From Patescibacteria group bacterium (GTDB lineage: Bacteria > Patescibacteriota > Microgenomatia > CAYGWK01), in contig JBMORX010000003.1 in assembly GCA_049322615.1 (NCBI GenBank), forward strand, positions 3,328 to 67,327: a stretch of DNA of 64,000 bases. The letters are read 5' to 3'. Positions within the stretch are counted from its first letter, which is position 1. The number at the start of each line of letters is the position of its first letter. This document shows, one piece after another, positions 7,902 to 63,955 of this stretch. The position numbers and the translations under genes are program-made. The notes below the pieces were generated by a model, which did not search any database, had not been told where the DNA came from, and saw only the letters and a list, made by a program, of their open reading frames with translations.

Positions 7902-7929
7902 AATCTAGTCAAAAACAAGGCCCAAATCG

Positions 7930-7963
7930 TTGACAAAATAGAACACGTGTCTTATTTTGTCAA
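7930..7963. repeat. Palindromic element copy b: TTGACAAAAT-AGAA-CACGTG-TCTT-ATTTTGTCAA
   Basis: It has perfect arms and sits in the convergent intergenic region. Confidence 0.7.
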
Positions 7964-9654: not shown

Positions 9655-9688
9655 TTGACAAAATTTGGCACGTGCGGTAAATTGTCAA
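9655..9688. repeat. Palindromic element copy c: TTGACAAAAT-TTGG-CACGTG-CGGT-AAATTGTCAA
   Basis: There is one mismatch in the right arm. It lies immediately upstream of the winged-helix regulator gene. Confidence 0.65.
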
Positions 9689-9690
9689 TA

Positions 9691-10401
9691 ATGGAGGCAA
9701 AAAAGGGAAGAAGAATTAAAGATAGACAAAGTTTGTTGCTTCGCAATAAAAAACGCCGGACAGTCCAAACCACCTTGCCCTCTCAACCTACAATTAATGA
9801 AATCACAAAAATTCTTGGAAAACAAATCGATAAGGAAATTTTCTTGAAAAAATATGCCAGAGTCGCTGATGTTCTTCTCCTAGTTGGCATGGGGGTCTTT
9901 TTAGGCGCTTCTCTTGTAATCCCCAATCTTCCAAAGGCTCTCTTGCCTCTTTTCAAACCTAATGAAAAAGAAGCCTGGAGACGGTTCAATGTTCCCTATC
10001 TTAAAAGAACATTAAAAAGGTTAGAGGATGAAAAACTTGTGGAAGTTGATGAGGAAAATGGACTTCAGGTAGTAAAAATAACGGAAGCAGGAAAAATAAA
10101 AATCTTAAAATGCGCTTTAGACAAACTAAAAATAGAAAAACCGAAAATCTGGGATAGAACTTGGTGGTTAGTAAGTTATGATATTTCCCGAGATTTTGAA
10201 CATAAAAGAGATATCTTTAGGGATTATCTTAAAACCTGGGGCTTTTATCCTCTTCAGGAAAGCGTTTTCTTGCATGCTTATCCCTGCCTTAAACAAATTG
10301 AATTTTTAAGAGAATATTTAGGAGTGGGAGACTGCGTTCGTCTCTTCAGAGTTTCCCAAATCGAAAATGATCGCCTTTTTCGAGAATTCTTCGGGGTTTA
10401 A
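9691..10401 (+). CDS. Membrane-anchored winged-helix regulator with a C-terminal PaaX-like (Cas2-fold-like) domain
   Basis: There is a TM helix (VADVLLLVGMGVFLGASLVI) and a winged-helix-like segment (LKRLEDEKLVEVDEENGLQVVKITEAGK). The C-terminus reads WWLVSYDISRDFEHKRDIFRDYLKTWGFYPLQESVF, reminiscent of the PaaX C-terminal/Cas2-like motif. The start was moved to ATG 9691, because the tracked TTG start lies inside the palindromic element. Confidence 0.45.
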   Translation: MEAKKGRRIKDRQSLLLRNKKRRTVQTTLPSQPTINEITKILGKQIDKEIFLKKYARVADVLLLVGMGVFLGASLVIPNLPKALLPLFKPNEKEAWRRFNVPYLKRTLKRLEDEKLVEVDEENGLQVVKITEAGKIKILKCALDKLKIEKPKIWDRTWWLVSYDISRDFEHKRDIFRDYLKTWGFYPLQESVFLHAYPCLKQIEFLREYLGVGDCVRLFRVSQIENDRLFREFFGV

Positions 10402-10436: not shown

Positions 10437-10470
10437 TGGACAAAATCCAGCACGTGCGGAATTCTGTCAA
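10437..10470. repeat. Palindromic element copy d: TGGACAAAAT-CCAG-CACGTG-CGGA-ATTCTGTCAA
   Basis: It has two arm mismatches. Confidence 0.6.
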
Positions 10471-11064: not shown

Positions 11065-11724
11065 TTAATCATTTTTATTCCTTGCTAACAAATAAACTTC
11101 TCCTTGTTGTTTCAGCAGCCGATACTCACCTGAATTTTGTAAATAAGAAAAATAGCTAAGGAGCAAGTCGCGTGACCCATCCGGATATAAATTATTACTA
11201 TCACCCAAAGGATCCAAATCAGCAACCAGATAATCCGGCTTTAGTTTAAAACAGCGCTTCATGTCCACCTTCCAAACAGTCGGATCGTCATGACAATTGG
11301 TCAAAAAGATTATTTTCTCCCGATGAGTCAGCTGTGGTCCTAAATTATTAGTGGCTGCCACGCTGGCACTCGCTGGAATCAAAGCTAAAATTGCCCGACT
11401 ATCTTTGGTTTTAGTTAAATCGTAAGAACCTCTCTTAGGCAAATCATTTAGAGCCGGGTTGGTCAATATCTGAACCAAAAGCACTCCAACCAAAAGTAAA
11501 CCAGTGGCTAATTTTTTTCTCAGCAAAAATTTTTTTTGAATTGCTTCTATCGCCCCAAAAGCCAAAATCGGAGCCAAAATTGAATTATACTGGAAAGCCA
11601 AACTCCAGCGAGTACCAATTGGTGTTCCAACAAACCGTTGGAAAAATTCCTCAAATAGAATAACAAAAATCCCAGGGGATAAAACTGGCAGAAAACCAAA
11701 AGCCAAAAAGGAAACAATCATCAC
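11065..11724 (-). CDS. C-terminal part of a DUF2079-like integral membrane protein (probably continuous with 11732-12475 through a frameshift)
   Basis: It follows the upstream ORF after a 7-nt gap in a different frame. A T8/A8 homopolymer at 11745-11752 lies in the last codons of the upstream ORF. Confidence 0.45.
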   Translation of the reverse strand: MMIVSFLAFGFLPVLSPGIFVILFEEFFQRFVGTPIGTRWSLAFQYNSILAPILAFGAIEAIQKKFLLRKKLATGLLLVGVLLVQILTNPALNDLPKRGSYDLTKTKDSRAILALIPASASVAATNNLGPQLTHREKIIFLTNCHDDPTVWKVDMKRCFKLKPDYLVADLDPLGDSNNLYPDGSRDLLLSYFSYLQNSGEYRLLKQQGEVYLLARNKND

Positions 11725-11731
11725 CCAAACT

Positions 11732-12475
11732 TTAGTGTAAGGATAAAAAAAACATCTTTATGGCTTCCCCTAAAGTCAGATCCTTTAAATGGCTTGGCAA
11801 ATAGGTAAAGGGCATTTTGCCAAAATAGGGAATGACGACAAATACGACCAATAAAAATAAAATTGCCGAGCCGAGAGAAATTAAAAGTCCCCGTTTAAAA
11901 TCGCGGTAGTGTATCATTAAAAAGGCTCCGAAAGCTACCGTCAAAAGAAATAAGTTCTCCTGAAGTCCCAAAAACAAGACCAAAACCAACCAAAATAGCC
12001 TATATTTTTTCTCTTCGTACAACCAAAACAACCACGCCAGCAAAGTGGTTGCCAGAACGATCGGATGGAAATCGAAAGCAACCGCATTTTGAATACCAAA
12101 AAAGGAAAGATAAGCAAAAGCAACCACTAAAGACAAGCAAATATCCCTCGTTTTTCTGAAGGCAAGAGAATAAATCGGATAAGCCCCTAAAGCAACAAAA
12201 AAAGCCTGAAACAAAAGTAACATAATCACATTATCCCAAACCCAATATAAGGGGGCTAATAAAAGCAGGGTTGGGGTAAAATGGTCACCCCAAGGATGGG
12301 CTTCTAAAATCGAGGAAAAAAGTGACTTACCGCGAGAGGCTAACCAAACGACCTGGTCATAAACACCCAAATCAAAAATAAAAGATCCAAAACGTAAATG
12401 ACGAACCACTGAATAAAGGCTGTAAACCAACCCAAAAACGATAATTAAAAACCAAATTCCATATTTTTTTACCAT
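11732..12475 (-). CDS. N-terminal part of a DUF2079-like multi-pass membrane protein
   Basis: It has motifs such as LGVYDQVVW, GDHFTPTLLLLAPLY and FDFHP and about 7 TM helices. Confidence 0.5.
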   Translation of the reverse strand: MVKKYGIWFLIIVFGLVYSLYSVVRHLRFGSFIFDLGVYDQVVWLASRGKSLFSSILEAHPWGDHFTPTLLLLAPLYWVWDNVIMLLLFQAFFVALGAYPIYSLAFRKTRDICLSLVVAFAYLSFFGIQNAVAFDFHPIVLATTLLAWLFWLYEEKKYRLFWLVLVLFLGLQENLFLLTVAFGAFLMIHYRDFKRGLLISLGSAILFLLVVFVVIPYFGKMPFTYLPSHLKDLTLGEAIKMFFLSLH

Positions 12476-12724: not shown

Positions 12725-12758
12725 TGGACAAAATTGGGCAATGGCGCAATTTTGTCAA
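12725..12758. repeat. Palindromic element copy e: TGGACAAAAT-TGGG-CAATGG-CGCA-ATTTTGTCAA (degenerate core)
   Basis: The arms are conserved but the central CACGTG is replaced by CAATGG. Confidence 0.55.
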
Positions 12759-24850: not shown

Positions 24851-24968
24851 ACACAATTTCAAGCGGTCGCATAAATTTGTGTCCCTGTATCATTGTACTA
24901 TTACAATAGTACAAAACTGCGATAATCAAATCGCCAAACTCCAGGAGGTGAATAGGTTCACATCTAAG

Positions 24969-25041
24969 TGACCCTGCCCGGATTCGAACCGGGGTTTGTA
25001 GGATGAGAACCTACTATCCTAAGCCGCTAGATGACAGGGCC
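24969..25041 (-). tRNA. tRNA-Glu (anticodon CUC)
   Basis: I folded it manually. The acceptor is GGCCCUG/CAGGGUC, the anticodon stem is GUAGG/CCUAC with loop UUCUCAU, the T-arm is CCCGG-UUCGAAU-CCGGG, and the D-arm is AUCUAGCGGCUUAGGAU. CCA is not encoded. Confidence 0.8.
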
Positions 25042-25107: not shown

Positions 25108-26190
25108 ATGACTTTTGATGAAAAACTTCCGGATCTATTTTTTGATGAGGAATTAAGAATAGATTTTAGCTTAACAGAACATGGGGAAGCGGCTGAGATT
25201 TTGAAAAAGAAAGGTTTTGGGGTAGTGTTGGCAATGAATATTGAGCAGGCACCAGAAGTATTTGCTAAAATTTTTAATACTTATACTTCTCATAATATTA
25301 AAGTTATTGGCTGGCCGCTGGTAGGAGATGATAAGGGATATTGGCCGAACAAAGAAAATTTTGATTATTTTTCTCAAAAGTTAATTAAGTATCTTAAAGA
25401 ACTTAAACAACAAGGAATAATCTTAGATTGGTTATGCCTGGATGTAGAACCAACACTTTTTTCTCAAAAGCAAATTATGGAAGTGCATTTTGGTTTTGTG
25501 AACTATTTTATCCGGGCAGTGCGGAGAGCCTTAACTTTAAAAGAGTTCTCAAGTTTTTATCAAAAAATCGGCTCATTGTTAGATAGTCTACATAGTCAAG
25601 GATGCAAAGTGATACTTGTTACTCCGCTTTTAGTAACCGACGATCTAGTATTTAAGGGCAGTGTTTGGCAGAAAGCAAACCATTCGGCAGTAATTTCTCC
25701 AGAAACACAAAAACTTTTACCATTCGATGCAATTCTTTTTATGCTTTTCCCAAGTGAATATGTTGATTACGCCCATTTATTATTTGGAAAGAAGATTGCC
25801 CAAAATTTATTCTTTAAAACTCTTGAAAGTTATGTGGTTGATACTTACTATTGGGCTAAAGAGCGAAATTTCGAGGGACAAATTTTCTTCCAAACAGGGC
25901 TCTTGGGGGAAACTGGTAAAAGAGGACGAGAGCCGATCTTTGAGAAACCAGAGGATTTTTACCCTTATGCTATTCAGTTAAATGCTCTAGCTCAAAAATT
26001 TGGCTTTGGCAGAGCTTACTATAGTTTAGAAGGAGTGACAAAAAATGGACAGCTCAAAGAGTGGCTAGAGGCCGTGCAAAGTAAAAATGAAACATTAGAA
26101 ATGGTAACTCATAGTAGCAAATTCACAAAACTTGTGCGCAAAATGATCTATAATCTCGCCTGCATTGCTTTAAGAGTGACTGGAAAGTAA
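25108..26190 (+). CDS. Hypothetical protein (360 aa), possibly TIM-barrel hydrolase-like
   Basis: There is no clear motif. It is one of the few plus-strand genes. Confidence 0.45.
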   Translation: MTFDEKLPDLFFDEELRIDFSLTEHGEAAEILKKKGFGVVLAMNIEQAPEVFAKIFNTYTSHNIKVIGWPLVGDDKGYWPNKENFDYFSQKLIKYLKELKQQGIILDWLCLDVEPTLFSQKQIMEVHFGFVNYFIRAVRRALTLKEFSSFYQKIGSLLDSLHSQGCKVILVTPLLVTDDLVFKGSVWQKANHSAVISPETQKLLPFDAILFMLFPSEYVDYAHLLFGKKIAQNLFFKTLESYVVDTYYWAKERNFEGQIFFQTGLLGETGKRGREPIFEKPEDFYPYAIQLNALAQKFGFGRAYYSLEGVTKNGQLKEWLEAVQSKNETLEMVTHSSKFTKLVRKMIYNLACIALRVTGK

Positions 26191-48697: not shown

Positions 48698-48731
48698 TTA
48701 CCGAAATTAGACACGTGTACAATTTTGTCAA
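48698..48731. repeat. Sixth, half-degenerate copy of the 34-bp palindromic element (CACGTG-TACA-ATTTTGTCAA; left arm decayed)
   Basis: The right arm and the CACGTG core are intact. The left arm matches only the AAAT part. Confidence 0.45.
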
Positions 48732-51013: not shown

Positions 51014-52555
51014 CTAATCCGTACCCTTCGGACGGTATTGTAAGGCTTCAGCAATGTGGTTTGGGCTTATTTCTTTTTCACCAGCCAAATCAGCAATAGT
51101 TCGAGAAACTTTAATAACCCTGAAGAAACTTCTGGCGGTTAAATTCATCTGAATAGTTGCCTGACGAAGTAAAGTCAAACATTCTGAAGACAGCCTACAA
51201 AAACGCTTAACATCCTTTGTTGTCATTTCTCCATTACAGATAATTTTTGTTCCCTTGAATCTTTTAGTCTGTAAATCTCTCGCTCTTTGGACCCGCCTTT
51301 TTATTATTTTTGAGGTTTCTGCGTTTTCCACCGATTTCTGCGTTTCTGCGGTTGCAAGCTTATCTACCTTCACTGCCGGCACCTCCAAATGTAAATCAAT
51401 TCTGTCTATTATTGGTCCAGAAATTCTTTTTTTGTAACGCTGGACCTGACCTGGAAGACAAGTGCAGGGCTTGACCGGATCGCCTAAATATCCACAGGGG
51501 CAAGGGTTTGAGGCGGCGACCATAATAAATTTTGCCGGAAAGGTTAAAGTCCCGGCTGCCCGAGAAACAGTCACAATCCCATCTTCCATCGGCTGCCTCA
51601 GAGCCTCTAAAACATGACGGGGAAATTCGGGAAATTCGTCCAAGAACAAAACACCCCGATGAGCCAGAGAAATTTCTCCAGGGGCAGGATGGCTTCCTCC
51701 ACCAATTAAGCCAATTCTTGAAGTCGTATGATGAGGTGAACGAAAAGGTCGATATTTCACAACCGACTCGCCTGGGGGCAAATTTCCGGTAACTGAATAA
51801 ATTTTTGTCACTTCAAATGCTTCCTCTTCGGTTAAATCAGGCAAAATCCCAGGCAGAGCCCGGGCTAACATCGTTTTCCCCGCTCCTGGTGGACCAATCA
51901 TCACAACATTATGTCCTCCGGAAGCAGCAATTTCCAAAGCCCGTTTAACATGCTCCTGTCCCCGAACATCAGCCATATCAAATTCAACCAAAACATTGGA
52001 AGTGATTTTTGAAAAAGGAGTATGGGGAATTGGCTTTATTTCCTCTCCGCCTTGAAGATGATAGAAAAGTTGTAAAAGGGAGGAGACTGGATAAATTTTA
52101 AGACCTTTGATAACCGAGGCTTCCCTGCTATTTATTTGCGGCAAAAAAATTCTTTTAAACTTTTTTTCTTTTGCCAAAATTGCCATCGCCAAAACACCGT
52201 TGGTATGGCGGAGAGAGCCGTCAAGGGAGAGTTCACCTAAAACTAGAGCATCTTTTAAATCCGCTTTTAACTGCCCGGAGGCAACCAAGATTCCTAAAGC
52301 AATTGGCAAATCATAAGAAGGACCAACTTTTGGTAAATCCGCTGGAGCAAGGTTGACAGTGATACGGCGCGGCGGAAAATCTGCCCCAGAATTTTTCAAA
52401 GCCGAACGAACTCTCTCCTTGGCTTCCTCAACGGCTTTATCTGGAAGTCCGACGATGGTAAAAGAAGGCAGACCTTGGGAGGCAATATCAACTTCAACCT
52501 CAATTGGAACAGAATCAAGTCCTACGGTCGCGCCAGAAAAAACCCGGGCAAGCAT
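51014..52555 (-). CDS. comM: YifB/ComM family Mg-chelatase-like AAA+ ATPase
   Basis: It has an N-terminal Lon-like domain, Walker A (GPPGAGKTM) and sensor motifs. Its first 26 codons are duplicated at 59408-59484 and partly at 60756-60783. Confidence 0.85.
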   Translation of the reverse strand: MLARVFSGATVGLDSVPIEVEVDIASQGLPSFTIVGLPDKAVEEAKERVRSALKNSGADFPPRRITVNLAPADLPKVGPSYDLPIALGILVASGQLKADLKDALVLGELSLDGSLRHTNGVLAMAILAKEKKFKRIFLPQINSREASVIKGLKIYPVSSLLQLFYHLQGGEEIKPIPHTPFSKITSNVLVEFDMADVRGQEHVKRALEIAASGGHNVVMIGPPGAGKTMLARALPGILPDLTEEEAFEVTKIYSVTGNLPPGESVVKYRPFRSPHHTTSRIGLIGGGSHPAPGEISLAHRGVLFLDEFPEFPRHVLEALRQPMEDGIVTVSRAAGTLTFPAKFIMVAASNPCPCGYLGDPVKPCTCLPGQVQRYKKRISGPIIDRIDLHLEVPAVKVDKLATAETQKSVENAETSKIIKRRVQRARDLQTKRFKGTKIICNGEMTTKDVKRFCRLSSECLTLLRQATIQMNLTARSFFRVIKVSRTIADLAGEKEISPNHIAEALQYRPKGTD

Positions 52556-52609
52556 ATACTAATTCTACCAGATCCGAGAACTACTTTTCAGAAGAAAACG
52601 GACAGTACT

Positions 52610-53620
52610 TTATGCAAAATCTTTTTTTAGAGTCTTAAAATACATTTGTTTTTCTGCCATTTCCGGATGCTCTTTAATTATTTTTTTAGCGCTAGCAACG
52701 ATACGTTTTATGCCTTCTTCTACCGACACTTTTGGTTTAAATCCAAGCACCTTCTCTACCCTACTATTGTCTGACAATAGCCTTCTTGCATAAATGTCGA
52801 TTGGTACTGAGACATAAATTGGCTTAAGATTTGTCTCAAGCTCCTCATTAATCAGTTGAATAATTTTATTAAAACTAGTTTCTACCCCAGTACCGACGTT
52901 GAGTGGCTGAGAAGAAATATCTTTTCCCAAAGCAAGGCAAAACATTTCTGCGGCATCATCCACATAAATAAGGTCTCTAGTTTGGTTGCCATCCCCCCAT
53001 ACAACAGGTCTTTTCCCAGAAACCATGGCCCACGCGAACAGCGAGGTGACATTAGCACAGCCTCCTTTAGTATCTTCTTCCTCACCGTAAACACTAAAAG
53101 GTCTCATCGCAACTGATTTTATGCCGCAGGAAGCGTCGTACTGATTACCAATCTCCTCATTAACCTTTTTTGAAAGCGCTTTTAAATCTGGAGGGTTAAT
53201 TACCATGTCTTCATGGTAAGGTAGTTTGTTTCCTTCATACACGGCACTTGTACTTGCATGGACAATTTTTTTTATACCATGTTTCTTCATCGCCTCAAGT
53301 ATGTTTAAGAAACTTTGGATAGTATTAATAGTGCTTTCTCGCGGATTCCCCTTATACATTAAAAATGACGACGGAGCTGCCAGGTGAATAACGCCGTTAG
53401 TTTTTGAGACTAAATCATCAACGAACTTGTAATCACGAAGATCGCCTTGGATAAAAGAAAAATTCGGACTGTTGACTTGAAAAAAAGATTGTGTTTTCTT
53501 TAAGTCTGTCGCTAGGATAACGTATCTATCCCTTCTCAAGAGGTTTCTTACAACGGCTTTTCCGATTAATCCAGAGGCCCCGGTAACTAAAATTTTTTTC
53601 ATGAATATAGATTTTAGCAC
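52610..53620 (-). CDS. NAD-dependent epimerase/dehydratase (extended SDR)
   Basis: It has the Rossmann motif KILVTGASGLIGKAV and YxxxK catalytic residues. Confidence 0.8.
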   Translation of the reverse strand: MLKSIFMKKILVTGASGLIGKAVVRNLLRRDRYVILATDLKKTQSFFQVNSPNFSFIQGDLRDYKFVDDLVSKTNGVIHLAAPSSFLMYKGNPRESTINTIQSFLNILEAMKKHGIKKIVHASTSAVYEGNKLPYHEDMVINPPDLKALSKKVNEEIGNQYDASCGIKSVAMRPFSVYGEEEDTKGGCANVTSLFAWAMVSGKRPVVWGDGNQTRDLIYVDDAAEMFCLALGKDISSQPLNVGTGVETSFNKIIQLINEELETNLKPIYVSVPIDIYARRLLSDNSRVEKVLGFKPKVSVEEGIKRIVASAKKIIKEHPEMAEKQMYFKTLKKDFA

Positions 53621-53648
53621 GAATTGATTGTAGAATAAACATTAACCC

Positions 53649-54830
53649 TTGAAAGTGAAAATGAAAATTTGTATTCTAACCCATGATTTTCCTCCGGTTA
53701 TAGGAGGAGCACAAACACACCAATATAACGAGGCAAAAAAGTTAAGCGAATTTGGCCATAAAGTTCAAGTAATAACAGGAACGCCTACACCTGATTTAAA
53801 AGATATAGACTATTCTAAGGAAAATTTCAATTTAATTCGCCTAGAAGGACTAAAAGAATTTTCAAAGGGTAAGATTGGTATAAAAGAGATTATTCCTTCA
53901 TTATTCAAAACTGTAAAAGAATTCAATCCCGACATAATCCATGCACACGGCTATATTCCTTTTTTAGGGGTCTGTTTTTTTATAAAAAGCATAAGGGCAA
54001 AAGTCTTTTTTACCTATCATGCAACTCCCAAACTAGAGTACAAAAGAGCTGCTGGCGTATTTGATGATTTCGAATTAGATAAATCCTTTGGGGAATTTAT
54101 TTTTCAATACTGTCCGTATGAGAAACTAATTGCTTGTAGCCGTTATTATTACAGCTGGGCAAAGAGCTGCGGCGCCCCTCCTTCCAAATTAAAGCTAGTT
54201 TATTACGGAGTTGACTTCGATAAATTTTTATCGGCAACCCCCCTGGAAAGAAAAAGAATAGGCTTTTCTAAAGATGACTTCATTATTTGTTCACCTGGGA
54301 GAATGATTCCAAGCAAGGGAGTAGTCGATTTAATTGAATTATTGGTATTTCTACCCCCAAATTTTAAATTATTTTTACCCACCAGTATTTCTTATACGAA
54401 ACCAGAGTTTAAAGAACAGATAATGAATCTCGTTAAAAGGCGAGCTTTGGAAAATAGGATCAATATTTTGGCTGACACTTTTAATGTATTTGATATGCCT
54501 GCGGCATACAAAATGTCAGACTTAGTGGTATTAGCATCTCACGTCGAGGGCTTAGGGTTGGTACTGATTGAAGGAATTGCTGCCAAGAAACCCGTTATCG
54601 GAACTGCGGTCCCTGGAATAACTGAAGTGGTGAATGACGGCAGAACCGGTTTACTAGCTCAACCACACAATCCCAAATCATTGGCTAACGCGATAATGAA
54701 GCTTTATAAGGACAGAACTTTACGCAAGCAACTTATAGAAGGCGCTTATTTATTCGCCCGAAAAAAATTCGATCTTACCGCCCAGACTAAAAAAATCGAG
54801 AAATTATTCCTAGATTCTCTTAAAAAGTGA
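53649..54830 (+). CDS. Glycosyltransferase family 4 (GT-B)
   Basis: It has the C-terminal EX7E-type motif region EGLGLVLIEGIAAKKPVIGTAVPGITEVV. Confidence 0.8.
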   Translation: MKVKMKICILTHDFPPVIGGAQTHQYNEAKKLSEFGHKVQVITGTPTPDLKDIDYSKENFNLIRLEGLKEFSKGKIGIKEIIPSLFKTVKEFNPDIIHAHGYIPFLGVCFFIKSIRAKVFFTYHATPKLEYKRAAGVFDDFELDKSFGEFIFQYCPYEKLIACSRYYYSWAKSCGAPPSKLKLVYYGVDFDKFLSATPLERKRIGFSKDDFIICSPGRMIPSKGVVDLIELLVFLPPNFKLFLPTSISYTKPEFKEQIMNLVKRRALENRINILADTFNVFDMPAAYKMSDLVVLASHVEGLGLVLIEGIAAKKPVIGTAVPGITEVVNDGRTGLLAQPHNPKSLANAIMKLYKDRTLRKQLIEGAYLFARKKFDLTAQTKKIEKLFLDSLKK

Positions 54831-55871
54831 TTGCGGGAAATTAAACGTTATGCCCTCGGGTTTTAATGCTATTGTCTCTATTCCCGTAGTTTCAGTCACA
54901 TATTTCTCATACGCATTAGAAAATGCATTATCTGTCAAATCAAGAAGACCAAGATGACTAATGAAACATTTTTTAACTTTTGAATCTTTAAGAATATCTA
55001 TAACGTCGTAGCCGGTTAAGTGAAATTTTGAGTGTTTCGTAAAAATAAAATCGTTAACATTGCAAATTAAAATATCGACGTCTCTGTAAGTTTTTTTTAA
55101 ATAATCATGTTTCTTTAAGATTCGGGAAAAAATTCCTTCGTAATCATCTGTTCCACTTTTCACGATTTGGCCTGTTTTAGTCTGAAATACCTTTGTGTAG
55201 CCAGTGTCGGTTATATAGCCAATTTTTAAGTTTTGATAATTAAGGACAAAGCCTTGGGTTCCTTTAATGCTGTGAAACATCGGAATGGGAGTCAGGGTAG
55301 CCCCATTAACCTCAATGGGGATAAGTGATTTACTTACGATACTTCGGACGTTTTTTATCCCTTTGCCAGAAATGTTACTGAAATAGTCACTCACTGCTTT
55401 TTCCTTAAATACTTCCTTTGGAGCAATAAGGGTAACTATTTTGGGATTTCCTGGATAAAGCATATTTTCTAAAGCCACATTAGCACCAGCATAATGATCT
55501 AAATGACTATGAGAAATAAACAAAGTATTTGCCTCAAGAGGGTTTATACCAGAAGCAAAGGTTCGAGTCTCAAATTCTGCTCCTGGGTCGACAACCATAA
55601 CTAGTTTATCTAAATAGATAACAAAGCCTATATATTTCCAGGGAGCGGTCCTGGCGTAGAGATTTGATTTTGAATAATGAAAGCAGGGGAAAACAATCTT
55701 TCTTTGGTGTGAGGGATAAATCGCTTCCCTTTTTATTTTCTCGGCAGCTTCCCTTTTTAGCCGCCTGAGTTTTTTAGAAAGTTTGATAAGTGTTTGCTCG
55801 CGAATAAGCATATCTTGTGCTATAATTTTCTCTCGTTGGTAATTAGAATTCGTTGCTAAAAATATTATCAT
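54810..55871 (-). CDS. MBL-fold metallo-hydrolase
   Basis: It has the HxHxDH motif (FISHSHLDHYAG). Confidence 0.7.
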   Translation of the reverse strand: MIIFLATNSNYQREKIIAQDMLIREQTLIKLSKKLRRLKREAAEKIKREAIYPSHQRKIVFPCFHYSKSNLYARTAPWKYIGFVIYLDKLVMVVDPGAEFETRTFASGINPLEANTLFISHSHLDHYAGANVALENMLYPGNPKIVTLIAPKEVFKEKAVSDYFSNISGKGIKNVRSIVSKSLIPIEVNGATLTPIPMFHSIKGTQGFVLNYQNLKIGYITDTGYTKVFQTKTGQIVKSGTDDYEGIFSRILKKHDYLKKTYRDVDILICNVNDFIFTKHSKFHLTGYDVIDILKDSKVKKCFISHLGLLDLTDNAFSNAYEKYVTETTGIETIALKPEGITFNFPQSLFKRI

Positions 55872-55900
55872 TTCTGATTGTTAATTACCAGCAGTCAAAC

Positions 55901-56917
55901 ATGGAAAGATTTAGAGAACTACGGCCACTTCCTGAGGGAATTTGGTCTTATGACACCATAGCGTTTAAAGGCCATATTGGTTCAGTCCGTGAGCTTTTGT
56001 TAGTGGTAACAGAGTCAGGCAAAGAGATTGTACCTACAACTCTTGAGTATCGTCAAAATCCTTATGGCGATAGACAAAGTCGTCTCTTTGAGGGAAGGTT
56101 TTCTAAAGAATTTGTTGACTACGGTAAAGTTGGCTTTTATAACAAAGGAGAAAAACAAGATTTTGAAGAGTATATTCTCTGGGACGAACAGGCGAATATT
56201 TCGATTTTAGCTTTACCTTTAGATCCGAAAACAAGAGTTTTTTCTGCTAAGGAAGCCCTAGAGAGATTTTTGGATTACAGTTTACCCCAAACTATTATTC
56301 TTAAAAAGTTTGTTGAATTTTTTCCTGATAAAGATTTAGGGTTGTTAGGTTCATGCGCGAATCTTTTTAATCAGCCCTCTTCTGACCTGGACCTCTTCGT
56401 TTACGGAGGAAGAAGTTTTGAAGAAGTAGCAAAGGCGCTTAGAGATAGTCATGTTAGGGCTCATTTGGGAATTAGACCCTTGCCTGAAGAAATTCAAAAT
56501 AAAAGCGCCGAAAATTACAGTAAGAGGTTTGGAATATCTTTTGAAAGAGCGAAAAGGATAGTCCTTTTAAGGAACCGTTATTTAGTCGAAATAGGTGGTC
56601 AAAACGGAATTAAGGTTTCTATTACAGGATGCTTTGACAAAAAAGAATATCAACTTCAAACAGTTTTGGGATCAAGAAAGATAAGAAAGGTCCAGGAAGA
56701 AGGTTTGGCTGTAGAAACCCATAATTCTGCCTCACTTCCGAGAGAATACATCGTGGAAATAGTTGGGCAGCAAGTTAGGGTTATTGCCATGCAGGAAGTT
56801 TTAAAGATGATGGTCGAAACCGGTGATAAAGTTGAACTCAGAGGAACTCTTCGGGAAAAAGACGGCGTGGAATTTATTTCTCTCGAAGACTATGAAGACA
56901 TCATTATTGCATTATAA
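55901..56917 (+). CDS. Pol-beta superfamily nucleotidyltransferase domain protein (start at the internal ATG 55901)
   Basis: The GS-x(9-13)-DxD pattern is LGSCANLFNQPSSDLDLFVYG. Confidence 0.5.
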   Translation: MERFRELRPLPEGIWSYDTIAFKGHIGSVRELLLVVTESGKEIVPTTLEYRQNPYGDRQSRLFEGRFSKEFVDYGKVGFYNKGEKQDFEEYILWDEQANISILALPLDPKTRVFSAKEALERFLDYSLPQTIILKKFVEFFPDKDLGLLGSCANLFNQPSSDLDLFVYGGRSFEEVAKALRDSHVRAHLGIRPLPEEIQNKSAENYSKRFGISFERAKRIVLLRNRYLVEIGGQNGIKVSITGCFDKKEYQLQTVLGSRKIRKVQEEGLAVETHNSASLPREYIVEIVGQQVRVIAMQEVLKMMVETGDKVELRGTLREKDGVEFISLEDYEDIIIAL

Positions 56918-57184
56918 AGAAATTTCGGCTAGATACGGAAAATTAAATCAAAAGGGCGAAAAATCTTGCTAACGCCATACTTGGTTATCGCCACAGTCTT
57001 AAAAGAGGGGGCGTTAAGGTCCCTAAAAAGTTCCAAGTAAAAATAGCAAAACTAGATAATAGCTTTGGTGTAAAGGTTTCAGAAACTTTTTACCCTGTAA
57101 CTCTTGAAAGAGTTATCCCAAAATGTCCGAAAAAACAATTCTTATAAATTATCAGATTAGTCTTCGAAAGTACAGAAAAATAGT

Positions 57185-57493
57185 TTGACTAAAAATAATT
57201 GGCCTGTATTTTTACTGTCCACAGATCTCTGGGAGAAAAACCTAAGATCAAATTCTCTCAAAAAAATAATCAATGTCATAAGTCTTTTAAAAGAGTCTGA
57301 TAGAGATCTTCTTCGACTGGCACTTCTAATCACATATTATTCTGAGGCTAACGCTGGAAGAAACGGGATCAAAAAAGAAAAAGCCTTTGGGGTCTATAAA
57401 AAATTTAAACCGGTAGCAACTTTTCCCGAAATGAAAAAGTTTATTATCCAAAGATTAAACGAGACTTTTAAGCCAGCTTTTAATAGAGTCTAA
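57185..57493 (+). CDS. Hypothetical small protein (TTG start in the track)
   Basis: It is an ORF only, with no motif. Confidence is low. Confidence 0.3.
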   Translation: MTKNNWPVFLLSTDLWEKNLRSNSLKKIINVISLLKESDRDLLRLALLITYYSEANAGRNGIKKEKAFGVYKKFKPVATFPEMKKFIIQRLNETFKPAFNRV

Positions 57494-58126
57494 AGATTGA
57501 ACAAGAACCTCATCTTCTTCAAGCGCGCTATCTAATATTTTTGTGCTTGCGCTTTCCTTAATATCTGAGATTATCAATTTTTCGAGTTTAATCAACTTTT
57601 TGACTTGCCTTAAAGTCGTCTCCCTATAACGTAGTGGATGGGTTGTAGATCTATTTAATCTTTCTTTAAGCTCTTCTGCTTTAGGAGATTTTAAAAAAAT
57701 AAAAAAAGAATGGTTATCAAGATCTAAATATTGTGGCATTAATTGAACGCCATCGATAATATAGTCTACCCCATCTTTGCGAGAAATCTTGAGTATATAG
57801 TCGACAATGGAGCAAATCTTCTCTGCCTGTTTGAAAAAAAGAGGAAACTCATCAGTGTCTTTATCTAATTGATTAATTCCGCGAAGACTAGAATCCATGG
57901 GTTCAAGAAATCTTAGCGTCTTCGTTATCACTCCTACCGAAGTTCTTTGTTTTATACCTAACCTAAATGAAAGATTATATGACAAAGAAGTTTTACCGAC
58001 ACCAAAAACTCCTCCTATTAATATGGAAATTGGGAAATTAATTTTCTCTTTTAATTTTTTGATTTCTTTTGCTTCGCCCGCTAAATTCACGAGGTTTATT
58101 ATATAATATAGGGTTAAAGATGACAA
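57455..58126 (-). CDS. P-loop NTPase, 2-phosphoglycerate-kinase-like
   Basis: Walker A reads LIGGVFGVGKTSLSYNLSFRLGI, resembling the 2-PGK/ATP-binding family. Confidence 0.45.
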   Translation of the reverse strand: MSSLTLYYIINLVNLAGEAKEIKKLKEKINFPISILIGGVFGVGKTSLSYNLSFRLGIKQRTSVGVITKTLRFLEPMDSSLRGINQLDKDTDEFPLFFKQAEKICSIVDYILKISRKDGVDYIIDGVQLMPQYLDLDNHSFFIFLKSPKAEELKERLNRSTTHPLRYRETTLRQVKKLIKLEKLIISDIKESASTKILDSALEEDEVLVQSLDSIKSWLKSLV

Positions 58127-59310
58127 AAAGGGTTAACGGGTATCCGTTGAATTATTTAAAAAATCCCACATGCAGATATTTTAATGGATACCATCCATGC
58201 CCAATTGCTATAAAATATCACACGGCTTGTCCTTGCGCCCATCACAAACCAATTGGCAAGAAGCTCCTTGTGATAGAAATGGGAGGAATTGGGAGCGTCT
58301 TGAGGACTACTGTCGTCACCAAGAATTTTAAAAGAATATATACTCCGTCGCATATTACATTTTTAACCCATAAGGATGGGATAGAAGTTCTTAAATATTC
58401 TCCCAGCGTAGACATGGCTCTTGCTTATAAGATAGAAAACTGTGTCACTCTCCTTGCGGAGACTTTCGATTTTATTTATAACTTTGAGGTTGATCCAGCT
58501 GCCTGTAGCCTCTGTAGTTTAATCCAGGCGAAGAAAAAATATGGGTTTAAGTGGAACAAAAATGCCCTACCGGGGCTGGCGCATCCTGAATCTGCCGATT
58601 TATTTCGATTTCAGGTTGATAACCAAATAAGGACTAAAAACCAAAAATCAATCCAACAACTTCTTATAGAAGCTGTAGGAATGGAATGGCAGGAACAGGA
58701 GTTTGATATACAACTCGAGAGGGAAGATAGGGCTTTCGCTAACAATTTTTTCCAAGGACACAAATTAGACAATCTAAGGGTAGTCGGACTCAATCTTGGT
58801 TCAAAGAAAATACATGCCAAGAAAAGATGGCCCATCGAATATTTTATCGATTTGACAAAAAGATTAAACGACATTGATAAAGTAAAACCCATTTTGTTAG
58901 GGGGTCCGGAGGAAATAGAAATCTATAGCTATGCGAAGTCAAGATTAAAATCAATCGGAATCATTGGAAATGAGTGTAAAAATACTATTGGGGAGTTTCT
59001 AGCTCTTATCTCTCGCTGTGAGGTTATAGTAAGCGCCACTACCTTTGGATTACTAGCAGCCACAGGACTAGGTGTAAAAACTGTTGCTATTTGTTCTCCA
59101 AAACCAATATCAGAAGTCTATACGTATGGCAAGGGTATAAAGGTTGCTTATTCACCAACTTATGATCCAGAATATAGTACAAAAATTAAAAACTTAACTC
59201 TGGGAGAAGAATTAAAAATTGGGCTAAAAGAGATTCCTGTAGAAATGGTCTTAGAAGCGGTTATAGACAGCTTAAAAAATGATTTTAGTAATCCAACCAG
59301 ATTTGTTTAA
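58120..59310 (+). CDS. Glycosyltransferase family 9 (heptosyltransferase-like), start at ATG 58120
   Basis: It is GT-B with a C-terminal half containing LGGPEEIE...TTFGLLAATGLGVKTVAI. TATAAT lies 12 nt upstream. Confidence 0.55.
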   Translation: MTKRVNGYPLNYLKNPTCRYFNGYHPCPIAIKYHTACPCAHHKPIGKKLLVIEMGGIGSVLRTTVVTKNFKRIYTPSHITFLTHKDGIEVLKYSPSVDMALAYKIENCVTLLAETFDFIYNFEVDPAACSLCSLIQAKKKYGFKWNKNALPGLAHPESADLFRFQVDNQIRTKNQKSIQQLLIEAVGMEWQEQEFDIQLEREDRAFANNFFQGHKLDNLRVVGLNLGSKKIHAKKRWPIEYFIDLTKRLNDIDKVKPILLGGPEEIEIYSYAKSRLKSIGIIGNECKNTIGEFLALISRCEVIVSATTFGLLAATGLGVKTVAICSPKPISEVYTYGKGIKVAYSPTYDPEYSTKIKNLTLGEELKIGLKEIPVEMVLEAVIDSLKNDFSNPTRFV

Positions 59311-59407
59311 GAGTGCTTCTTGATAAAAACCAATTTTATTTCAATCTTGCATTAATCTCAAATTTTGGCATTGAGTTCCTGCCTTTGCAAAAGGAGGAAG
59401 CCCGGCC

Positions 59408-59484
59408 GAGGCAATATCAACTTCAACCTCAATTGGGACAGAATCAAGTCCGACGGTCGCGCCAGAAAAAACCCGGGCAAGCAT
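59408..59484. repeat. Direct repeat of the comM 5' end (77 nt, 75/77 identical to 52479-52555; weaker similarity extends about 25 nt further upstream)
   Basis: I aligned it by eye. GAGGCAATATCAACTTCAACCTCAATTGG(A/G)ACAGAATCAAGTCC(T/G)ACGGTCGCGCCAGAAAAAACCCGGGCAAGCAT encodes [26 protein letters not shown] on the minus strand. Confidence 0.75.
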
Positions 59485-59524
59485 TAGATTAATATTAGCA
59501 GAAAAACTGGTATAATTTAATTCT

Positions 59525-59872
59525 GTGAATCAAAGATATGGTGGAGTGATTTGGACAAATCACGCAATCCAACGGCTTTATGAACGCCGGATTACTCAAT
59601 CGGATGCCTGGTACTCTTTTCAACATCCGGACGGACAATTGTCAGGCACCACTCCTGGTTCCTTCCGCTACTACAAAGATTATGGACCCCAAAGAATTGA
59701 GGTGGTGGCTACCCGAAACGAGAAGAAAGAGTGGGTTATCCTTTCCTGTTGGTCAAAAATAATGGGCACTGGCCAATCTATCTTTCCTAAATCAGAAAAT
59801 ATTTTCTGGGCGCTCGTCAAAAGAATCTTCAGAAAAATTTGGCTGGTAATTTGGAAGAAAAATAAGGCTTAA
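59525..59872 (+). CDS. Hypothetical protein, DUF4258-like (possible toxin-like domain)
   Basis: The N-terminus [20 protein letters not shown] resembles the DUF4258 consensus (H.A.ER..ERGI...). Confidence 0.35.
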
Positions 59873-60720
59873 AAAGACTTCTTCAGCTCTAAAATTGCTG
59901 TCCCCCTCTTCTTATTTTCATGCACAATGGGAGTAAAATCTAACATTCGAAAACCAAACAGGAAAGTCTGAGATGCCTTCTTAGTACGACCAAACTCTTC
60001 CCTTGAAGGTGGTATCATTTCATCTATTAACTTAGCTAAAAGCGCTTTTCCACTTTCTAGTGGCTCCTCTCTAGCTGAACCAATCGGCTGAAAGTAAGAA
60101 CCCCCTGGCTTAAGGACTCTATTGACCTCAATGATAAATCTAATAAGATCTTCTCGCGATAAAAAACACACCAAAGCATTACTCGTAACCAAATCAAACG
60201 CGTTCTCTTTAAATGGAAGTCGAGCAGCTTCTCCGGCGACAAAACCTACTTTTGACTTTTGAATCCGCTCCCTGGCAATCCCTAAAAGAAATGGAAGCAA
60301 ATCTAAACCAACGAAGCTTTTACAATGCTTAGTAATTTTTCGGGTAACATTTCCTGTTCCGCAACCAATATCTAATCCTCTATCCCACTCTTTCTTCCCA
60401 ATCTCCTCGCCTAAAGCTACAATATCATCTTTATATCGCCTGCCAACAATTATGTCATACCAGAGATCGCCAGTGGAGCATTTTTCCACGACTAGTCTAT
60501 AATAATCCTCCAGTCTTTTTGCCTCCTTCATCTTCTTAAACAAACCCTCCATCTCTGTTAAGGCGACTCTACCAAAGAAACCCTTTTGAGATTTTTCTGT
60601 CCCCTCTTCCTGACGGGCAAGATTAAGGACTTGACCTTGGATTTCGGGATCGTGGGGATTTTGTTCTATAGCAGAACTCAAATCTAAATATCGTTGTCGG
60701 ATTTCTTTCTGCTCCTCCAT
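59869..60720 (-). CDS. Class I SAM-dependent methyltransferase with an N-terminal extension
   Basis: It has motif I LDIGCGTGNVT and post I/II motifs. Confidence 0.7.
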   Translation of the reverse strand: MEEQKEIRQRYLDLSSAIEQNPHDPEIQGQVLNLARQEEGTEKSQKGFFGRVALTEMEGLFKKMKEAKRLEDYYRLVVEKCSTGDLWYDIIVGRRYKDDIVALGEEIGKKEWDRGLDIGCGTGNVTRKITKHCKSFVGLDLLPFLLGIARERIQKSKVGFVAGEAARLPFKENAFDLVTSNALVCFLSREDLIRFIIEVNRVLKPGGSYFQPIGSAREEPLESGKALLAKLIDEMIPPSREEFGRTKKASQTFLFGFRMLDFTPIVHENKKRGTAILELKKSF

Positions 60721-60755
60721 TCCGACTCAATTATAACACCACAGGCGGCAAACCA

Positions 60756-60783
60756 TCGCGCCAGAAAAAACCCGGGCAAGCAT
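60756..60783. repeat. Third, 28-nt partial copy of the comM 5' end (TCGCGCCAGAAAAAACCCGGGCAAGCAT)
   Basis: It is an exact match to the first 28 nt of the comM coding 5' end in minus-strand sense. Confidence 0.7.
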
Positions 60784-60816
60784 TAAAATTATTCTGGCAT
60801 ATCTAAGAACTAGTTT

Positions 60817-61533
60817 TCAAGAAGAGCGATGTACCTTGTGCCATAAATGGCGCAGTTTTGCTCGCAATCTTCCCCAAAAGGTAATTTCTCCTCCCTCAAG
60901 GGGGACGCGGATCTCAACATAAAATCGGGAAAGTGAGCGGAGAATTAATTTAAAAAGTTCATCTTTGCCTTCAGTTTTTCCTCGAAGAATATGATGATGA
61001 CAGCCAATAGCGACTGTCTGAACCGGTAAAAACAACTGGATATCCGCCAGACCTTCGACAGTTAATTCTTTTTCTTTAGATTCTATCTCCATCGCTGCCT
61101 TTCGGGCTTCAAGTTTATCCGAAGAATATTCGTCATAGCGCATTTGAATTAATTTCTTCCAATCTTCAAGATATCTTTTCTCGATTCCTAAATCTTTTAG
61201 ATAATCTAGATGGGCTTTAGGGATTTCGTCTTTGACAATTAGAAAATACTCTTTCAATTCTTGCTCACCATGAAGATCAGGTGCCTCAAGGGTAAGCATC
61301 AAAAGAACAAGATAAGAAACTACTAGTTCATTGAAAATTCGATCCTGCTCTGTTTTGTCCAACTTCTCAAATTCAGCAAACTCGCGGAATTTTTTATCTC
61401 GAAAGAGCTTAAAGGCTTGGTTGCTAGCCGCCTGAACCAAAGTGGCGCAAAATACCGAGGTCACCCTAGAAATAGGCGGAGGATTCTTCAACTTCCAATT
61501 TTTAAGTTTTTTTAACTCTTCTTCTAAATTCAT
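60817..61533 (-). CDS. Hypothetical protein (238 aa)
   Basis: I found no motif. Confidence 0.4.
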   Translation of the reverse strand: MNLEEELKKLKNWKLKNPPPISRVTSVFCATLVQAASNQAFKLFRDKKFREFAEFEKLDKTEQDRIFNELVVSYLVLLMLTLEAPDLHGEQELKEYFLIVKDEIPKAHLDYLKDLGIEKRYLEDWKKLIQMRYDEYSSDKLEARKAAMEIESKEKELTVEGLADIQLFLPVQTVAIGCHHHILRGKTEGKDELFKLILRSLSRFYVEIRVPLEGGEITFWGRLRAKLRHLWHKVHRSS

Positions 61534-61582: not shown

Positions 61583-61837
61583 TCAACCTCTATAAATTTC
61601 TTTCCTATGACCAACACGAAGTATGATAATTTTTCTGTCTTCAACATCAAAAATAACTCGGTAATCTCCTATCCGAAAACGATAACCACCCAGTTGAGGC
61701 AAAATTAATTTTTTAGCATAAAAAAACGGCTTTTCGGCAAGCCGCTTAAGACCCTTGGCTAATTTCTTTTGAGCAACCCGATCGAGTTTTTTGATATCTC
61801 GATAAGCGTTTTTGGTATAAATTAACTCATACACCAT
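61583..61837 (-). CDS. Type II toxin, RelE/ParE family
   Basis: It is 84 aa. The C-terminus GGYRFRIGDYRVIFDVEDRKIIILRVGHRKEIY is typical of RelE/ParE. Confidence 0.75.
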   Translation of the reverse strand: MVYELIYTKNAYRDIKKLDRVAQKKLAKGLKRLAEKPFFYAKKLILPQLGGYRFRIGDYRVIFDVEDRKIIILRVGHRKEIYRG

Positions 61838-61840
61838 TAA

Positions 61841-62092
61841 TTAGAGTTTACCAAAAACTTCCTTGTGAGTGTAATATTTGCCCTTTTTATATTGTTGGCG
61901 CGCTTCTTTTATGCTTTTTAAATATTTTGGGCTTGCCAAAGCCAAAAGGTTTTCAAAAAAGTCAAGGTTAACCAAAGCAGAGACTGGACTATCTTTTTTA
62001 GTCACCAAAAGATATTCGCGTTTTTTGGCAACTTCTTCTAAAACATCAGCTAGATTGTTTCTTAAAGTAGTAATTGGAACTGTCTGAATCAT
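61841..62092 (-). CDS. Type II antitoxin, Phd/YefM family
   Basis: It is 83 aa. TTLRNNLADVLEEVAKKREYLLVTKKDSPVSALV matches the Phd/YefM fold. It lies 3 nt upstream of the toxin gene. Confidence 0.75.
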   Translation of the reverse strand: MIQTVPITTLRNNLADVLEEVAKKREYLLVTKKDSPVSALVNLDFFENLLALASPKYLKSIKEARQQYKKGKYYTHKEVFGKL

Positions 62093-63022: not shown

Positions 63023-63955
63023 CTAAACTCTTATGGACCAATTTTTCTTAACTGCTCTTAATTTGGCGCTGTCGGCGCGGGGATTTTGGGCGATTTCTTC
63101 CGGAGTTGCCATGACTGGTTTTTTGGTGAGAATTTCAACCAAGCCAGATTTCTGCCATTCCAAAAACTGGTGCTTAACAATTCTATCCTCAAGTGAATGA
63201 AAAGAGATAACCACTAACCTGCCTCCAGGTTTTAAAGCACCCAGCGCTTGGGGCAGAGCTTCTTCTAAAGCGGGTAACTCTTGATTGACTTCCATCCTTA
63301 AAGCCCGAAAAATTTTTGATGCCCAGTGCCCTTTGCGGGAAAATCGATAATCAGGAGGGGTGGCTCGGCGAATTAAATCCAGCAGTTCTCCGCAGGTTTC
63401 TATCTTTTTTCTATCCCTAACTTTTATAATTTCTCTGGCAATTTTTCCCCCAAAAGGTTCCTCACCTAGTTTAAAAAATATTTCTCTTAATTTTTTCTCG
63501 GGATAAAAATTGACAATATCATAAGCAGAAAATTGCTGGGCCGGGTTCATTCGCATATCCAAGGGAGCGTCCATCCCTTTTTCTCCGAAAGAAAATCCCC
63601 GCTCTGGTGTCTCGAGTTGATAACTGGAGACACCCAAATCGAAAAGAATCCCATCTACCCCCATAACCCCTAAATTCCCCAGAATATTCTTTAAATTTAT
63701 AAAATTATCATTTATAAAAATTACCTGGTCTTTAAATCTGCTTAAGTTTTTTTGACTTTCGGCAATCGCCTCTGGGTCGCAATCAATGCCAATAAGTTTT
63801 CCATTTTTGCCTATTTTTTCCAAAATTTTTTCGGCGTGTCCTCCGCCCCCTAAAGTTGCATCAACAAAAATTTCGCCAGGTTTTGGGTCTAAAAATTTTA
63901 GGGTTTCTTTTGGTAAAACTGGAATATGGAAAGTTTTTTCTTCCATTAATGACAC
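63023..63955 (-). CDS. rsmH: 16S rRNA (cytosine1402-N4)-methyltransferase RsmH (MraW)
   Basis: The N-terminus is HIPVLPKETLKFLDPKPGEIFVDATLGGGGHAEKIL and it is about 310 aa. Confidence 0.85.
   Translation of the reverse strand: MSLMEEKTFHIPVLPKETLKFLDPKPGEIFVDATLGGGGHAEKILEKIGKNGKLIGIDCDPEAIAESQKNLSRFKDQVIFINDNFINLKNILGNLGVMGVDGILFDLGVSSYQLETPERGFSFGEKGMDAPLDMRMNPAQQFSAYDIVNFYPEKKLREIFFKLGEEPFGGKIAREIIKVRDRKKIETCGELLDLIRRATPPDYRFSRKGHWASKIFRALRMEVNQELPALEEALPQALGALKPGGRLVVISFHSLEDRIVKHQFLEWQKSGLVEILTKKPVMATPEEIAQNPRADSAKLRAVKKNWSIRV

Follow-up and report, generated by a model that had tools for sequence, protein, structure and literature searches.

Displaced copies of the comM start at a variable locus of a Microgenomates genome

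Copies of the comM start and their promoters

A 64,000-nucleotide (nt) stretch of contig JBMORX010000003.1 from a Patescibacteria group bacterium of the Microgenomatia, referred to below as the window, was analyzed with respect to the competence gene comM (yifB) and the DNA upstream of its start codon. The window contains the start of comM three times, once in the functional gene and twice as upstream stubs. Comparison with related genomes supported the view that the extra copies are comM 5' ends displaced by insertions at the comM start, with a replacement promoter and 5' end supplied each time. A preliminary description of this DNA had read the repeats as displaced 5' ends with a replacement promoter, and this reading was borne out, with comM being intact and encoding 513 amino acids (aa; 51014-52555, minus strand). 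The identity of ComM/YifB was verified by the presence of the N-terminal ChlI domain (Pfam 1.7e-47), the Mg_chelatase AAA+ core (2.8e-93) and Mg_chelatase_C (5.2e-30), and 7999 homologues were found at E<=1e-100. The top matches came from Microgenomates/Patescibacteria and reached 76% identity in the GTDB species set, 81% in the JGI metagenomes and 89% aa identity in a large protein collection.

The repeated core corresponds to the first 28 nt of comM (ATGCTTGCCCGGGTTTTTTCTGGCGCGA, minus strand), which occur in three exact copies with 0 mismatches: at the functional comM start (c1, 52528-52555), at 59457-59484 within a longer scar (c2, 59350-59484) and as an isolated 28-nt comM start (c3, 60756-60783), all on the minus strand. 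In a shuffle control that tolerated up to 3 mismatches, 0 of 100 shuffled sequences contained a match to the 28-mer. The c2 scar comprises nt 1-111 of comM (59374-59484) followed by a 25-nt junction (59350-59373), and the extent of its homology to approximately nt 111 became clear from a better-preserved orthologue in a related locus, L161. The copies c1 and c2 are 91% identical over 96 nt, and the first 77 nt differ only at nt 33 and nt 48, both differences being synonymous. The 75/77 identity reported earlier between 52479-52555 and 59408-59484 is thus correct, as are the third copy of the first 28 nt at 60756-60783 and the direct orientation of all copies. For c1 and c3, the core matches at 28/28 positions, compared with 70% identity in the approximately 45 nt upstream and 55% in the downstream flank. 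With a background identity of 65-72%, the probability of 28 straight matches is 6e-6 to 1e-4. The reading frame stays open for 47 codons in c2 and forms an 18-codon mini-ORF (open reading frame) in c3. Codons 26-28 read SAG in the stubs (c2 included), in L161 and in L167, and SQG in the comM gene of the window, L166, L170 and L081.

A profile search of the window detected no diverged copies of the comM start besides c1, c2 and c3. One 26-nt match at 56646-56671, inside a nucleotidyltransferase gene, was judged to be due to chance. An apparent similarity of c3 past nt 28 (TGTTATAATTGAG) was rejected, as it belongs to the promoter of the neighboring methyltransferase gene and is kept at the unrelated locus L182. 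The proposal that the core is a DNA element conserved throughout the clade was also discarded, since the third-codon-position entropy of codons 2-8 was not unusually low among 36 orthologues. DNA folding of the copies gave no hairpin (z-scores -1.0 to +1.0), Rfam returned nothing for them but a sub-threshold miRNA match, and no inverted repeats were found at the copy boundaries.

Promoter scans placed a promoter with the architecture CTGAAA-18-TG-TAGAAT directly upstream of comM (U_a', 52556-52600, minus strand); it ends 6 nt before the ATG and is the promoter that now drives the gene. A second promoter (U_a, TTGAAA-18-TG-CAGAAT, 60784-60828, minus strand) ends 7 nt before the ATG of c3. The two are 70% identical, and the architecture of U_a' is that of the native comM promoters of L169 and L170. 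Both are extended -10 promoters from which a leaderless or near-leaderless transcript would be expected. The region upstream of c2 differs and consists of the 40-nt divergent promoter region between comM and a DUF4258 gene (U_b, 59485-59524). U_b is 89% identical over 45 nt to the DUF4258-comM intergenic region of L166 and is homologous to that of L175, and the promoter scan also located a TG-TATAAT promoter for the DUF4258 gene within it, on the plus strand. Alignment to the comM promoters of relatives sorted the copies into two native types. The U_a type is found at c1, c3, L161 copy B and the functional comM genes of L169 and L170, and the U_b type at c2, L161 copies A and C, the distal copy of L166 and the functional comM genes of L167 and L175.

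Related loci and the rsmH-comM interval

The loci from other genomes that were compared with the window, 182 in all, are designated here by L numbers. A DUF4258 gene that points away from comM is the immediate or near neighbor of comM in L175, L166, L081, L169 and the window. The homologues that occupy this position are 87.5% (L166), 78% (L169) and 75% (L081) identical, and L175 contains one as well. In L175 and L176 the order is a DUF4258 gene on the minus strand, a 38-nt promoter of the U_b type and comM, with a single junction; in L175 this arrangement is uninterrupted and comM is of full length. In the window, DUF4258 and U_b are followed by just 111 nt of comM, the junction, 6.7 kb of cargo, the U_a-type promoter and then the full comM gene. 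By this comparison, c2 is the ancestral comM start in its original place and U_b the ancestral comM promoter. As c2 is positioned like the uninterrupted comM start of the relatives, the 6.9-kb glycosyltransferase block is an insertion, and a promoter and a 5' end came in with it. The arrangement with one junction, which the preliminary description had named as the sign of an insertion, thus exists at the genus level in L175/L176. The same description had treated 59485-60755 as a second discrete island, which did not hold up. This segment includes the ancestral comM promoter and the ancestral neighbor DUF4258, which is conserved beside comM in five lineages, and its methyltransferase gene has its own promoter and is found elsewhere in L182.

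In this clade, comM lies in a conserved backbone of MiaA, AI-2E transporter, BacA, RsmH, a variable region, comM, Zn-ribbon protein, DUF4446, DUF3048 and SecDF, and RsmH precedes the variable region in L166 and L171-176. The genes found between RsmH and comM differ in every lineage examined. L171-174 carry DinB, PPDK and a P-type ATPase, and L175 carries an RRM protein, a cytidylate-kinase-like protein and DUF4258. DUF4258 is accompanied by a Y1 transposase in L166 and by a 230-aa gene in L081 and L169. L177 has a Y1 transposase, and L170 has a single 56-aa ORF. An identical gene order in all relatives, which would have spoken against insertion, was consequently not observed. As judged from these gene orders, the rsmH-comM interval is an apparent hypervariable hotspot of gene exchange in this Microgenomates clade of the candidate phyla radiation (CPR). 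Full-text literature searches gave nothing specific on comM hotspots in Patescibacteria.

Direct copies of the comM start were then counted in all comM loci with 400 nt or more of sequence ahead of the gene (156 loci), and six of these contained such copies upstream. Outside the window, comM-start repeats were present in five further lineages (L082, L106, L166, L161 and L060). In L082 (ComM 75% identical), a 21-nt exact repeat surrounds a Fic/Doc cassette of 625 nt, and the stop codon of this cassette overlaps with the ATG of comM. L106 (ComM 58%) has a 21-nt exact repeat around a 640-nt operon of an antitoxin and a YafQ-type toxin, and between its copies the -35 and -10 elements and the 21-nt core are conserved while the spacer is replaced. 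L166 has a 25-nt copy that bounds an insert with a Y1 element, and L161 has three extra copies. The right-hand ends of all stubs lie at comM nt 19, 21, 22, 25, 25, 28, 111 and ~195. The probability that at least five of seven independent events fall into one 10-nt bin between nt 14 and 200 is ~8e-6, for a bin that was picked post hoc.

Two of these loci show additional features. L060, from an Anaerolineae metagenome-assembled genome, contains a 237-nt direct repeat of the comM promoter and start with 97% identity (7714-7950 and 9941-10177), which bounds one gene for a cysteine-rich protein of 538 aa with no Pfam match; its layout matches that of the other loci, but the organism belongs to another phylum and the repeat is much longer. 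In L166, a duplicated 3' fragment of rsmH (EEILENPRADSAKLRAIEKI*) is located at 6300-6385, just past the distal copy of the comM start, and the full rsmH gene lies 400 nt upstream.

The closest relative of the window is L161, with ComM 89% identical at the aa level and comM 79% at the nt level. Its gene order is Phd, ParE, copy A, a 238-aa gene, copy B, a radical SAM gene, copy C, five small genes, a Y1 transposase and comM. Copy C (3045-3180) is orthologous to c2: the promoter tail, the comM fragment to nt 111 and the 25-nt junction are alike, and the similarity then stops. Copy B (at 1660) is orthologous to c3, follows directly after the 238-aa gene and loses similarity at the end of the core. 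Copy A is a further 22-nt copy of the comM start that precedes the 238-aa gene and has no counterpart in the window. The flanking genes of the two loci are related (Phd 95%, ParE 87% and the 238-aa gene 72% identical), whereas the scars enclose unrelated cargo. Both scars, c2 and c3, are thus older than the split between the window and L161, or were exchanged between the lineages, and the genes between them were replaced afterwards. The preliminary description had taken the 97% identity of the repeats as a sign of recent events. This could not be upheld, since the scars and their junctions are common to L161 despite only 79% nt identity in comM and unrelated cargo, and the high identity reflects a homogenised or constrained core. 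The same comparison answers the concern that the repeats might have been created during assembly, as junctions of both the c2 and the c3 type recur in L161, an independent assembly. Between L161 copy C and the functional comM start of that locus, 14 of 15 differences are synonymous third positions, and the stub and the present gene start must therefore once have been separate functional alleles. Informative sites across the four sequences behave in two ways: nt 24 and 42 agree within a genome, and nt 48 and 109 agree by copy type.

Possible routes of insertion

The reading favored here, with a probability of roughly 0.5, is that a site-preferring enzyme encoded in trans recombines at the comM start and that cargo is later replaced by ordinary double crossover between a scar and comM. 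Incoming DNA would be attached to comM directly behind its first 19-28 nt (in one case behind ~111 nt) and would bring its own native-type comM promoter and 5' end, so that the prior promoter and start would be pushed upstream as a dead stub. The joint would be made by a trans-acting enzyme with a preference for the comM start, and the exchange would take place inside the core of ~20 nt, which would explain a perfect core between diverged flanks. Once scars exist, the cargo between them could be swapped by ordinary homologous recombination with the scar and comM as anchors, and every scar would still act as a promoter that transcribes into the adjacent cargo. The clustering of breakpoints at nt 19-28, the core that stays perfect in the window and in L106 although both of its flanks have diverged, and the small self-contained cargo resembling toxin-antitoxin cassettes are sequence features that favor this scheme. 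Several observations weigh against it. The breakpoints are spread over nt 19-28 and do not fall on one nucleotide, the left ends of the inserts have no common sequence, no classical attP arm is visible, and the insert of L166 starts inside the rsmH 3' fragment. The promoters of all copies are of native comM types and DUF4258 is chromosomal, and the incoming DNA therefore resembles the chromosome of related lineages. Only four informative sites contribute to the signal of concerted evolution, by which the first ~45 nt of comM may be homogenised within a genome. No candidate enzyme co-occurs with every case, and no close strain, within-species empty site or excised circle was found. A search of viral and metagenome contigs for the exact 28-nt core gave 0 matches, and a look-up of the exact ComM sequence likewise came back empty.

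Exchange driven by homology, without a site-specific enzyme, is a serious but less probable alternative. Transformed DNA consisting of comM and its donor upstream region would enter by RecA within comM and be completed by an illegitimate or short-homology joint, either as homology-facilitated illegitimate recombination or as Campbell-type entry of a circularised fragment. Recombination of this kind has been described in naturally competent bacteria (PMC3240628). It would account for the native comM promoter type on every copy, for the DUF4258-U_b-comM arrangement being a native one, for cassettes that lack a recombinase and for an L166 insert that begins in a fragment of rsmH, which is natively located upstream of comM. 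The synonymous character of the differences between the L161 scar and gene fits a meeting of two functional alleles, and the differing cargo between conserved scars in the window and L161 is what a double crossover yields. Against it stand the clustering of breakpoints at nt 19-28, which was seen in five or six independent events, and the perfect core with diverged flanks on both sides. The enzyme-based reading was placed above homology-driven exchange because RecA-dependent entry should favor long stubs, and the opposite was seen. A sliding-window comparison of comM with seven relatives gave no detectable mosaic, the nearest relative being, at 79% nt identity, too distant to decide the matter.

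The preliminary description had envisaged two discrete and recent tandem islands, inserted in the manner of SXT at prfC; the integrase, of the SXT/prfC or dusA kind, would act in trans or would have been lost. The direct repeats of a gene 5' end with restoration of the gene agree with such a model, comM is hit by an integrase-bearing island in Acidithiobacillus ferrooxidans (PMC10322971), and targeting of a 5' end is known for dusA islands (PMC4482086). Nevertheless, this model is highly improbable, given that the scars are common to L161 and hence not recent and that the second segment holds the conserved chromosomal neighbor DUF4258. In addition, no integrase or remnant of one was found in the segments, the window or the small L082 and L106 cassettes. 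The missing integrase or transposase, already pointed out for both segments, was verified by Pfam and phmmer and extended to the whole window: the cargo ORFs contain no integrase, resolvase or transposase domain in Pfam, phmmer with XerD and resolvase seeds, run on every window ORF of 60 aa or more, gave no match, and Pfam analysis of 30 further window ORFs returned housekeeping families only and no recombinase. Domains of TnsABC/TniABC-type transposition are absent from the cargo, the repeats being direct and 28-111 nt long and comM being uninterrupted. DNA folding, boundary repeats and a domain search revealed neither an attC-type structure nor IntI. With no recombinase linked to any cassette, an L166 insert that starts in an rsmH fragment and promoters of native type, an SXT-like integrase mechanism was not retained.

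A mobile gene that recurs at this position encodes a Y1 (HUH) transposase of 221-224 aa and is flanked by hairpins. Four lineages have it 45-60 nt ahead of the comM ATG, namely the L161 group (5658-6475), L166 (6595-7412), L084 (1-860) and L177 (48-840); in L177 its orientation is reversed and the hairpin differs. In NCBIfam, the transposase was matched best by the REP-associated tyrosine transposase (RAYT; REP, repetitive extragenic palindromic). Between L161 and L166, the identity of the ~815-nt unit is 96-100%, compared with 64-85% in the flanks, and it is therefore regarded as a mobile unit that favors the spot upstream of comM. Such a transposase might nick single-stranded DNA near the comM start and mobilise the cassettes or create a fragile site, but a role as the agent is improbable. 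Neither a Y1 homologue nor its hairpin was found in the window, the L082 and L106 cassettes do not contain the gene, no hairpins are formed by the copies of the comM start, and the Y1 unit of L166 is itself nested within a cassette that starts with the duplicated rsmH 3' fragment. Moreover, IS200/IS605-type insertion is not known to leave long direct repeats. The Y1 transposase is thus kept as a lead and not taken as the agent. A likeness of the c1 promoter to the left flank of the Y1 element was considered and dropped for lack of blastn support. A REP-like sequence (CCTGGAAaGTGTAtTAGCTTGaCACCT) flanks the Y1 gene of L177 (48-95 and 795-840) and also occurs upstream of the methyltransferase homologue in L182 (~3290-3330), which suggests a dispersed REP family in these genomes. 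Finally, the source is a metagenome-assembled genome, and an assembly artefact or chimeric contig has to be considered as the origin of the repeats. This explanation deserves next to no weight, since orthologous scars with the same junctions are present in L161, which is an independent ENA assembly, analogous structures occur in several other assemblies, and the copies have unequal lengths and different flanks, which a collapsed duplication would not show.

Gene content, known systems and significance

The cargo between the U_a' promoter and c2 spans ~6.7 kb (52601-59349) and has a GC content of 0.365, compared with 0.396 for the window. Pfam, NCBIfam and PADLOC were employed for its annotation, and Pfam agreed with the gene content given previously for the locus. 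It encodes an SDR epimerase (52610-53620, minus strand), a GT4 glycosyltransferase (53649-54830, plus), an MBL hydrolase (54810-55871, minus), a Pol-beta nucleotidyltransferase (55853-56917, plus), a further ORF (57185-57493, plus), a P-loop kinase (57455-58126, minus) and a GT9 glycosyltransferase (58069-59310, plus). The closest homologue of the SDR epimerase (72%) is found in the order MBL-SDR-YchF-GT2-rpsF-ssb, away from comM. Between c2 and c3 lie the DUF4258-like divergent neighbor of comM (59525-59872, plus; Pfam 1.7e-4) and a methyltransferase dependent on S-adenosylmethionine (59869-60720, minus; Pfam Methyltransf_11 9e-23). The latter has its own extended -10 promoter (TGTTATAAT, 60727-60735, minus), 17 nt past c3, and its homologue at the unrelated locus L182 (61%) has the same promoter. 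The only PADLOC match in the cargo was mad2 (methylation-associated defence), which corresponds to the methyltransferase domain of this gene (1.4e-18). It is probably a generic domain match, as no partner genes are present. Past c3, the window continues with a 238-aa gene of unknown kind (60817-61533, minus), the ParE/RelE toxin (61583-61837, minus) and Phd antitoxin (61841-62092, minus) identified by Pfam, a 186-aa gene of unknown kind, and rsmH (mraW; 63023-63955, minus; Pfam Methyltransf_5 6e-104), which forms the left backbone edge of the variable interval. A database look-up of the 186-aa ORF gave nothing but one 1-kb contig.

Further features were observed elsewhere in the window. A 32-nt palindromic motif (GACAAAATnnnGCACGTGCnnAATTTTGTCAA) is present in six copies (7494-7525, 7932-7963, 9657-9688, 10439-10470, 12727-12758 and 48700-48731), two of which bracket an ORF for a PaaX_M-like regulator (9655-10401), and the copies look like operator sites of one regulon. 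Another palindromic motif of ~37 nt (CATTTGTTTAAATGATTTAAATCATTTTAACAA) has four intergenic copies (560-596, 2163-2199, 2641-2677 and 6986-7009), with two of them flanking a Trp_repressor-like ORF (2197-2643). A DUF2079 membrane protein is split over the adjacent ORFs 11065-11724 and 11732-12475, which cover profile positions 248-423 and 3-201, and this could be due to a frameshift, a pseudogene or a sequencing error. A 360-aa ORF without Pfam match (25108-26190) is located beside tRNA-Glu (24968-25041) in a kilobase of low GC content (0.353). Among the relatives, L081 contains a GGAAAGTCC-type sequence at 294-720, between the AI-2E transporter and BacA genes, that looks like RNase P RNA.

Insertion at a gene start with repair of the gene is known from several systems. 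SXT/R391 elements integrate at the 5' end of prfC and supply a replacement 5' end and promoter. Islands with dusA-specific integrases target the 5' end of a housekeeping gene as well (PMC4482086, PMC8409611). The window shares with both the insertion at a 5' end, the replacement 5' end and the displaced fragment or direct repeat at the far junction. Unlike the SXT/R391 and dusA islands, which have a tyrosine integrase beside the att site and have been shown to excise as circles, the comM cassettes have no integrase, are as small as 0.6 kb, carry native comM promoters and leave several stacked scars. Direct repeats of the target at the junctions and a restored gene are thus common to both, and a recombinase within the island is not. 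comM is also a target in other bacteria. In Acinetobacter, it is interrupted by AbaR/Tn6022-type elements, which are Tn7-like transposons that leave a short target duplication. The 95-kb iMGE6 of A. ferrooxidans, which targets comM, carries an integrase and RitABC and has a 14-bp repeat (PMC10322971). The target gene is the same, but in contrast to AbaR and iMGE6, the window has an intact comM gene and lacks genes for transposition or integration.

Segments without a recombinase are known from other systems. The cis-mobilisable elements (CIMEs) of streptococci are recombinase-less segments. At tRNA genes of Prochlorococcus, islands are built by tycheposons (bioRxiv 10.1101/2020.12.28.424599). 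In both cases, a hotspot of repeated integration holds cargo segments between partial target copies, and many of these lack a recombinase and depend on one in trans. They differ in using the 3' end of a tRNA gene and in having known intact integrase elements; here, a protein-gene promoter and start are used. The flanking att-like repeats of the window and its lack of a recombinase would fit a cis-mobilisable element, for which no cognate integrase or intact element was identified among the 182 loci. Integron cassette arrays and clusters of attC sites lacking integron integrases (CALINs) also stack small, promoter-proximal cassettes, often with toxin-antitoxin genes and without a recombinase of their own, at one site. 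In the window, by contrast, there are no attC hairpins and no IntI, and the repeat unit is the comM promoter and start. In the orphan toxin/immunity arrays downstream of rhs and cdiA, successive acquisitions displace the prior gene end, which is kept as a stub. The stubs of these arrays retain part of the conserved region, and the exchange is driven by recombination at sequences that are conserved, as may be the case here. The arrays are a mirror image of the comM locus, as they displace toxin 3' ends, whereas the stubs described here are 5' ends of a housekeeping competence gene with their promoters. The nearest formal analogue would accordingly be an array of cis-mobilisable recombinase-less segments or a mirrored rhs/cdi orphan-module array. 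A more far-reaching idea is that the comM start of Microgenomates/CPR is a dedicated cassette-capture site of integron-like logic, with its own promoter and first ~20 nt as the recombination site and the enzyme, possibly a RAYT-like Y1 transposase, encoded elsewhere. Toxin-antitoxin, defence and surface-glycan cassettes would then be stacked under copies of the comM promoter. This idea is speculative and rather unlikely.

The genomes of CPR/Patescibacteria are tiny, and the acquisition of accessory genes by these organisms is poorly understood. The locus described here represents a recurrent and well-delimited exchange hotspot at the start of a competence gene, in which stacked promoter-bearing scars log successive acquisitions. 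If the joints are made by a trans-acting enzyme, the locus would be a cassette platform of a previously undescribed kind; if they are made by natural transformation, it would be a clear record of how transformation turns over islands in bacteria that have not been cultured. The repeated comM starts provide a practical marker for variable cargo, such as toxin-antitoxin, methyltransferase and glycosylation genes, in these genomes.

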